Source: a phage
Length of the DNA: 20,506 bases
Assembly (NCBI GenBank): GCA_026165385.1
Contig: GCA_026165385.1_4524.3
Direction: 5' to 3' (one strand)
The notes under the pieces are model-generated. The model saw only the letters and a program-made list of their open reading frames with translations, was not told the origin of the DNA and ran no database searches. Below are positions 9,278 through 9,457 of this stretch, piece after piece. A program made the position numbers and the translations under genes. The number at the start of each line of letters is the position of its first letter. Position 1 is the stretch's first letter.

Positions 9278-9457
9278 TTAACCCTTCTTAAGTAAGTCGT
9301 AAAAACCACCGTTCACATGTTTAGGAGCAGAAACCCGACGAGTAGACAGACGATGACATTCAGGGCAAACATCGTTTTCTCGTTCAGAAATTCTTTTAAT
9401 TTTTTCATATTCATGACCACAATCTTCAGATTGGCATTTATAGTCGTATAACGGCAT
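9278..9457 (-). CDS. FmdB-type zinc-ribbon protein, 59 aa ([20 protein letters not shown]...CPECHRLS), not in the ORF track
   Basis: My own translation; C-x3-C ... C-x2-C pairs in the MP-x-Y-x-YKC FmdB-like pattern; its ATG overlaps the upstream stop as TAATG. Confidence 0.65.
   Translation of the reverse strand: MPLYDYKCQSEDCGHEYEKIKRISERENDVCPECHRLSTRRVSAPKHVNGGFYDLLKKG

Follow-up and report, generated by a model that had tools for sequence, protein, structure and literature searches.

The DNA analysed here, referred to as the window, is a stretch of 20,506 nucleotides from phage contig GCA_026165385.1_4524.3. It is 97-98% identical end to end to RB69-group Mosigvirus phages, e.g. ChristianSchoenbein, a20 and JS09. 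The open reading frame (ORF) under study lies on the minus strand, among the following genes and features, given in order along that strand:

10155-10679, minus strand: motB.2, the first gene listed in the gene order
10126..10154, minus strand: sigma-70-type promoter-like site (TGTACA, 17-nt spacer, TATTAT, extended -10 TG), a consensus match only
9870..10097, minus strand: cef, 75 aa, modifier of suppressor tRNAs (Pfam T4_Cef, E 3e-34; phrog_1354), with which the unit begins
9457..9870, minus strand: goF orthologue, 137 aa, mRNA metabolism modulator (71% to T4 GoF, E 3e-74)
9458..9474, minus strand: ribosome-binding region of 39.2 (TTTAAGGAACAATA before the ATG), inside the 3′ end of goF
9278..9457, minus strand: gene 39.2 (NwgI orthologue), ATG, 59 codons, TAA (Pfam PF09723, TIGR02605, phrog_1076)
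8853..9275, minus strand: RB69ORF005c homologue, 140 aa (phrog_622, E 1e-19), the last gene of the unit
8839..8854, minus strand: terminator-like GC-rich hairpin (AAGGGCTTCGGCCCTT, then a T run), between ORF005c and gene 39 and immediately following the former
6972-8789, minus strand: gene 39 (60+39 fused), topoisomerase II large subunit, from the gene order

The initial annotation of the window had proposed a 59-aa ORF at 9278-9457 without giving its strand. The ORF is indeed present, on the minus strand, with an ATG start and a TAA stop. It had been called unlisted because, at 59 aa, it falls just below the usual 60-aa threshold of ORF lists, and lists cut at this length miss functional phage micro-proteins. 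Annotations of the gene exist for RB69, JS09 and T2, among many other records. Its product is 100% identical to RB69 gp39.2 (NP_861696.1), the first 168 nts of the gene being identical in the window and in RB69 DNA, and shares 93% identity with the T2 protein and 82.5% with the T4 protein (59 aa in the window, 58 aa in T4). JS09 and RB69 label it “FmdB-like transcriptional regulator” with the note “gp39.2 conserved hypothetical protein”, while T2 labels it “39.2”. The minus-strand order cef, goF, 39.2, (ORF005c), 39 is common to the window, RB69, JS09 and ChristianSchoenbein, and the order in T2, T4 and JS10 is comparable. Judged from sequence and gene order, the ORF at 9278..9457 is gene 39.2 of an RB69-like Mosigvirus and the orthologue of T4 39.2/NwgI, hence an already known gene and not a new one. 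Sequence, length and position between goF and gene 39 agree with those of T4 and RB69 39.2; the goF stop of the window is shifted by one codon and overlaps the 39.2 start, but there is otherwise no difference of substance. The locus thus brings little new biology, since 39.2 is annotated in many phage records, its function is published and the RB69 protein is identical.

The labels of the two genes flanking 39.2 had been exchanged in the initial annotation. The 137-aa ORF is goF and is annotated as such in RB69, JS09 and ChristianSchoenbein, whereas the 140-aa ORF described as goF-like is RB69ORF005c, which matches T4 GoF only weakly in a pairwise comparison (E 0.003). Both proteins match phrog_622 (E 4e-38 for GoF and 1e-19 for ORF005c) and have an FF(D/E)EV motif in common, and from these resemblances RB69ORF005c and GoF may be remote paralogues. 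Homologues of ORF005c occur in T2 (T2_005, 38% identity) and in Citrobacter phage Moon (gp10). T4 and JS10 lack the gene and carry the lipoprotein-like 39.1 in its place.

The position of 39.2 next to gene 39 in Straboviridae raised a functional link with topoisomerase II, which was dropped as unsupported: the proximity reflects conserved gene order within a hyperplastic early region, a terminator separates 39.2 from gene 39 both here and in Miller, and the homologue found in Ackermannviridae sits elsewhere.

Two other parts of the window are worth describing. Upstream of motB.2, the adjacent genes at 10739-11158 and 11168-11632 (both on the minus strand, 139 and 154 aa) are paralogous, sharing the motifs FKW(G/A)LC... 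and FISD(R/Q)WVEDG.KLYNIVF. They are annotated as MotB-like transcriptional regulators in JS09 and RB69 and therefore represent a tandem duplication of motB-like genes. Downstream of gene 39, at about 5829-6929 on the minus strand, alignment to the ChristianSchoenbein annotation places a putative hmC-arabinosyltransferase (RB69ORF003c). Such a homologue would fit RB69-type arabinosyl-hydroxymethylcytosine DNA modification, not T4-type glucosylation.

Conservation of gene 39.2 and its database records

The window protein matches the Pfam family Zn_ribbon_8 (PF09723) over residues 1-42 with 49.3 bits (E 5e-13; gathering cut-off 34.4 bits) and the NCBIfam family TIGR02605 (FmdB family zinc ribbon protein) with 48.0 bits (E 9e-13; curated cut-off 31.3 bits), and it also matches the PHROG family phrog_1076. 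A tblastn search identified homologues in 956 phage records, the match spanning 80% of the query or more in 913 of them, and an exhaustive HMMER search with gp39.2 against 1.84 billion representatives returned 252 matches at E ≤1e-3. Relative to T2, the gene has accumulated 11.5 synonymous and 5.5 non-synonymous differences (dN/dS 0.095) and, relative to T4, 22.8 and 13.2 (dN/dS 0.071). From these substitution counts, 39.2 is under purifying selection (dN/dS ~0.07-0.10).

Among 24 aligned sequences, with identities as low as 36-45% (Moon, ECD7, Muldoon, Miller, LPCS28 and metagenomic representatives), M1, C8, C34 and P45 never vary, while P2, Y4, Y6, R26, A44, G50, G51 and D54 are kept in at least 90% of the sequences. 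The second metal ligand is either Cys or His among these 24. The spacing of the knuckles varies among the phage relatives (C-x4-C, CxxH, CxC, CxxC), with four ligands in all. Conservation in related phages, a check attached to the initial annotation, is therefore found on both counts, i.e., homologues in the 956 records and retention of the metal ligands.

An ORF of only 59 aa could in principle be a chance, non-functional reading frame between goF and ORF005c, and several observations lean that way: T4 gp39.2 went undetected by mass spectrometry (PMC9697503), the T4 GT7 record lacks an annotation of 39.2 and frameshifted versions exist among the deposited records. However, a chance ORF would hardly score above the curated cut-offs of both PF09723 and TIGR02605, have homologues in this many phage records, 913 of them at 80% query coverage or more, display 23 synonymous against 13 non-synonymous changes relative to T4 at such a low dN/dS, or keep its ligands and tail motif at 36-45% identity. 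In addition, a phenotype of the 39.2 deletion is published, as stated in a passage of PMC5153855. This explanation retains practically no likelihood and is, as far as sequence comparison goes, already refuted by the conservation pattern.

T4 resources do not agree on the annotation of 39.2. In the T4 gene table of PMC9697503 (Table S2), 39.2 is a 138-nt gene at 5702..5839 with 45 codons. T4 DNA holds an intact 58-codon 39.2 ORF, which the GT7 record (KJ477686) leaves unannotated (1501-1677 of the compared locus), and a protein cluster named “Uncharacterized 5.1 kDa protein” is the 45-aa form of T4 39.2. The 45-codon annotation may explain why gp39.2 was “not detected” in proteomics; such a small protein also yields few peptides.

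Variant forms occur in other records. In Shigella phage vB_SsoM_113 and Salmonella phage Manna, 47-aa forms follow gp39.2 as far as residue ~31, beyond which they run into a hydrophobic out-of-frame tail (...IVCLLVGLLLLSM), which closely resembles an alternative-frame ORF at 9313-9420 on the minus strand of the window. Either they are genuine frameshift mutants and the gene is dispensable, or the two records contain sequencing errors. Outside Straboviridae, Serratia phage IME250 (Ackermannviridae) carries a distant 81-aa homologue (1501-1746 of the compared locus), which adjoins a gp33-like late-transcription accessory gene. The IME250 record annotates only the C-terminal 41 codons and leaves the zinc-ribbon part unannotated.

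Gene junctions and transcription of the cef-ORF005c unit

At the goF/39.2 junction of the window, stop and start codons overlap as TAATG with one A shared (plus strand 9455-9459, “catta”), and the cef/goF junction at 9868-9872 has the same form. The 39.2/ORF005c junction reads TAAttATG, a 2-nt spacer without overlap. The chain of TAATG junctions described in the initial annotation is thus present at cef/goF and goF/39.2, but it stops there, and only the cef/goF overlap is conserved, being kept in T4, T2, RB69 and Moon. In RB69, JS09, ChristianSchoenbein, T4 and T2, the goF/39.2 overlap is absent and the sequence is ...GGAATAAtaATG or ...GGAATAAttATG, with a 2-nt spacer. GoF of the window is one codon longer (...HFKEQ*) than that of RB69, JS09, ChristianSchoenbein and T4 (...FKE*), as CAA stands in place of the usual TAA stop (change at 9457-9462, minus strand), and this single change is sufficient to produce the overlap with 39.2. 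Both forms of the junction exist in IMG/VR, with three contigs containing CAATAATG and five containing TAATAATG.

Each of the four genes cef, goF, 39.2 and ORF005c has its own AGGA/GAGG-type Shine-Dalgarno sequence 6-9 nts before the ATG, and the AAGGA of 39.2 is conserved in JS09, RB69, T4, T2 and JS10. Compared with coupled genes of T4-type early regions (ATGA or TAATG), the window presents the same type of junction at cef/goF and goF/39.2 and TAAttATG at 39.2/ORF005c, but its downstream genes keep their own Shine-Dalgarno sequences and one overlap is polymorphic. In the closest relative, 9 out of 34 same-strand junctions are ≤2 nts and 15 out of 34 are ≤16 nts. Junctions of this type are so common in the genome that they carry no specific information on cef, goF, 39.2 and ORF005c.

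The surroundings of 39.2 also vary between phages. On the upstream side, ECD7 has dexA, Muldoon a MazG-like gene and Miller a hypothetical gene, while downstream lie the lipoprotein-like 39.1 in T4 and JS10, an ORF005c-like gene followed by 39.1 in T2 and a terminator in Miller.

The promoter-like site at 10126..10154 falls within the 57-nt gap upstream of cef. At the other end of the unit, the hairpin at 8839-8854 (AAGGGCCGAAGCCCTT) has T runs on both strands and scores as an intrinsic terminator in either orientation, and the relatives WFbE185, MM02 and ATK47 have an annotated terminator at the corresponding position. Hence cef, goF, 39.2 and ORF005c probably share one early transcript, running from the promoter-like site to the terminator-like hairpin. 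In T4, the transcripts of 39.2, goF and cef were classed as early, and proteomics in the same study placed GoF and Cef among the early proteins and gp39.1 among the late ones (PMC9697503). In the phage of the window, 39.2 would likewise be an early minus-strand gene that probably shares an mRNA with cef, goF and RB69ORF005c, and it would be translated from its own Shine-Dalgarno sequence. A structured RNA as an explanation of the locus was dropped, since an Rfam scan of the whole window returned no RNA family.

The initial annotation had gone further and suggested stoichiometric co-expression of the four small proteins. In its strongest form, this would make Cef, GoF, gp39.2 and ORF005c subunits of one complex, with a stoichiometry fixed by translational coupling. 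The spacing of the three junctions (-1, -1 and +2 nts), the flanking of the four genes by a promoter-like site and a terminator-like hairpin and the persistence of the cef/goF TAATG in four phages are compatible with it. However, the goF/39.2 overlap is unconserved and arises from a TAA-to-CAA change, every one of the genes has its own ribosome-binding sequence, junctions of ≤2 nts are frequent in the closest relative, the neighbours of 39.2 differ between phages and T4 proteomics puts the products in different classes (PMC9697503). Co-expression at fixed stoichiometry is consequently unsupported, and membership of the four proteins in one complex is very unlikely.

Zinc ribbon and tail of gp39.2

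The protein consists of a predicted N-terminal four-ligand zinc ribbon (residues 1-40) and a tail (residues 41-59). Its cysteines are C8, C13, C31 and C34, the first knuckle being C-x4-C and the second CxxC, with 17 residues between C13 and C31. The two cysteine pairs and the MP-x-Y-x-YKC start on which the initial assignment had been built are both present, although the pairs differ in spacing, and the FmdB-type zinc-ribbon assignment itself holds, given the scores above both family cut-offs and the conserved ligands. The N-terminus, MPLYDYKC, conforms to the MPxYxYxC start shared by nearly all family matches.

With the FmdB family (TIGR02605, CxxC_CxxC_SSSS; PF09723), gp39.2 shares MPxYxYxC at the initiator Met and four ligands with the 17-residue gap, and its scores lie above both cut-offs. 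The definition of TIGR02605, two CxxC knuckles about 17 residues apart, is departed from in the first knuckle, which is C-x4-C in the window protein and CxxH, CxC or CxxC in other phage members. The tails differ as well. That of gp39.2 is the conserved A44 P45 ... G50 G51 F52 Y53 D54 (A-P-x-x-V-x-G-G-F-Y-D), and a G-G-F-Y-D-type motif occurs in 20 of the sequences compared, most with the full A-P-x-x-V-x-G-G-F-Y-D tail. In contrast to this short phage tail, the cellular members among the matches listed mostly carry the longer F-x-F-K-G-S-G-F-Y-x-T-D-Y, often followed by low-complexity sequence. A reading of gp39.2 as similar to a RiPP precursor, prompted by the bacteriocin-like tails in the description of TIGR02605, was dropped in view of the short, conserved phage tail, which is not of low complexity.

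An AF2 model computed from a 19-sequence alignment places strands at residues 3-8, 16-20, 28-30 and 37-40, with a pLDDT of ~83 for residues 1-40. The four predicted strands are the expected zinc-ribbon core. The tail (residues 41-59) has a pLDDT of ~56 with a short helix at 52-57, and on this model it would be flexible. No PDB entry was matched significantly when the model was searched with Foldseek (best E 0.36), and a PDB sequence search with gp39.2 gave only insignificant bL31 matches (E 0.3 or worse). The best, non-significant Foldseek matches are all small zinc-ribbon modules, namely RbpA, Rpb12/RpoP, the MCM N-terminal Zn domain and the aRF1 C-terminal Zn module, with TM-scores of 0.4-0.5 over ~40-60 residues of the predicted ribbon. 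gp39.2 has neither a sequence relationship nor a significant match to any of them, and the resemblance is one of fold class only. Orthology, conservation, predicted fold and operon layout are results of the present analysis. C8, C13, C31 and C34 would hold a zinc ion and so make the ribbon a rigid scaffold, and the tail, which is conserved and flexible, could be the element that binds a partner.

Modulation of GroEL and regulation of transcription

In T4-type phages, folding of the major capsid protein needs GroEL together with the phage co-chaperonin Gp31, and a protein that tunes GroEL would therefore be useful on hosts with a variant GroEL. Gene 39.2 was reportedly first selected by Ang and Georgopoulos from RB69, and the T4, RB43 and RB49 homologues are said to have behaved alike. 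If the RB69 origin is right, the protein of the window would be the very sequence selected.

Passages in an essay by Georgopoulos (PMC5153855) and in PMC4396842 describe T4 gp39.2 (NwgI) as modulating the GroEL/GroES chaperonin of the host, and both credit this work to Ang & Georgopoulos (Genetics 2012;190:989-1000; PMID 22234860). A T4 39.2 deletion mutant is described there as blocked on specific groEL mutant hosts (PMC5153855; PMC4396842). By analogy with the T4 orthologue, to which this literature on the GroEL link and the deletion phenotype refers, the window protein would act on the host GroEL/GroES chaperonin. Genetic and biochemical work on T4 gp39.2 is reported to show that the protein moves GroEL toward the open conformation, in which GroES or the phage co-chaperonin is bound, and that this shift aids phage growth on hosts whose GroEL matches poorly. 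Very probably, then, 39.2 of the window is the NwgI orthologue, an early operon gene encoding a zinc ribbon with a tail and acting on host GroEL/GroES.

The database label points in another direction, to a transcription regulator, i.e., a small zinc ribbon that would contact DNA, RNA polymerase or sigma and alter host or phage transcription. The protein does belong to TIGR02605/PF09723, phrog_1076 falls in the “transcription regulation” category, the closest structural matches (none significant) include RbpA and YdjO, two zinc ribbons that bind sigma, as well as the RNA polymerase subunit Rpb12/RpoP, and the neighbouring goF, motB-like and cef genes concern RNA and transcription. However, the “FmdB-like transcriptional regulator” label is inherited from the name of the family, and FmdB itself was called “putative regulatory” only from its gene position and cysteines. 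A literature search on FmdB returned a passing mention and no functional test of a regulatory role. Moreover, all fold matches lie at E 0.36 or worse, and the sole experimental work on gp39.2 described in the passages cited above points to GroEL (PMC5153855; PMC4396842). A role in transcription is accordingly improbable. Modulation of GroEL remains the preferred function, and it has a practical consequence for annotation: where records say “FmdB-like transcriptional regulator” or “hypothetical protein”, the passages cited support “GroEL/GroES modulator NwgI (gp39.2)”.

How the protein might contact the chaperonin can be considered from its tail. To our knowledge, no direct binding site of gp39.2 on GroEL has been described. 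The mobile loop of GroES is G-G-I-V-L, to which the G-G-F-Y-D tail of gp39.2 may be loosely comparable by analogy, the likeness consisting of G-G and two hydrophobic residues. The F-x-F-K-G-S-G-F-Y-x-T-D-Y of cellular FmdB-family proteins looks like a longer version of the gp39.2 tail motif. It is conceivable, though unlikely, that the conserved tail docks on GroEL and that the cellular FmdB family, with its related motif, shares such a non-transcriptional role. If so, this very large “putative regulatory” family might in general consist of modulators of chaperonins, or of another machine, and not of transcription factors.
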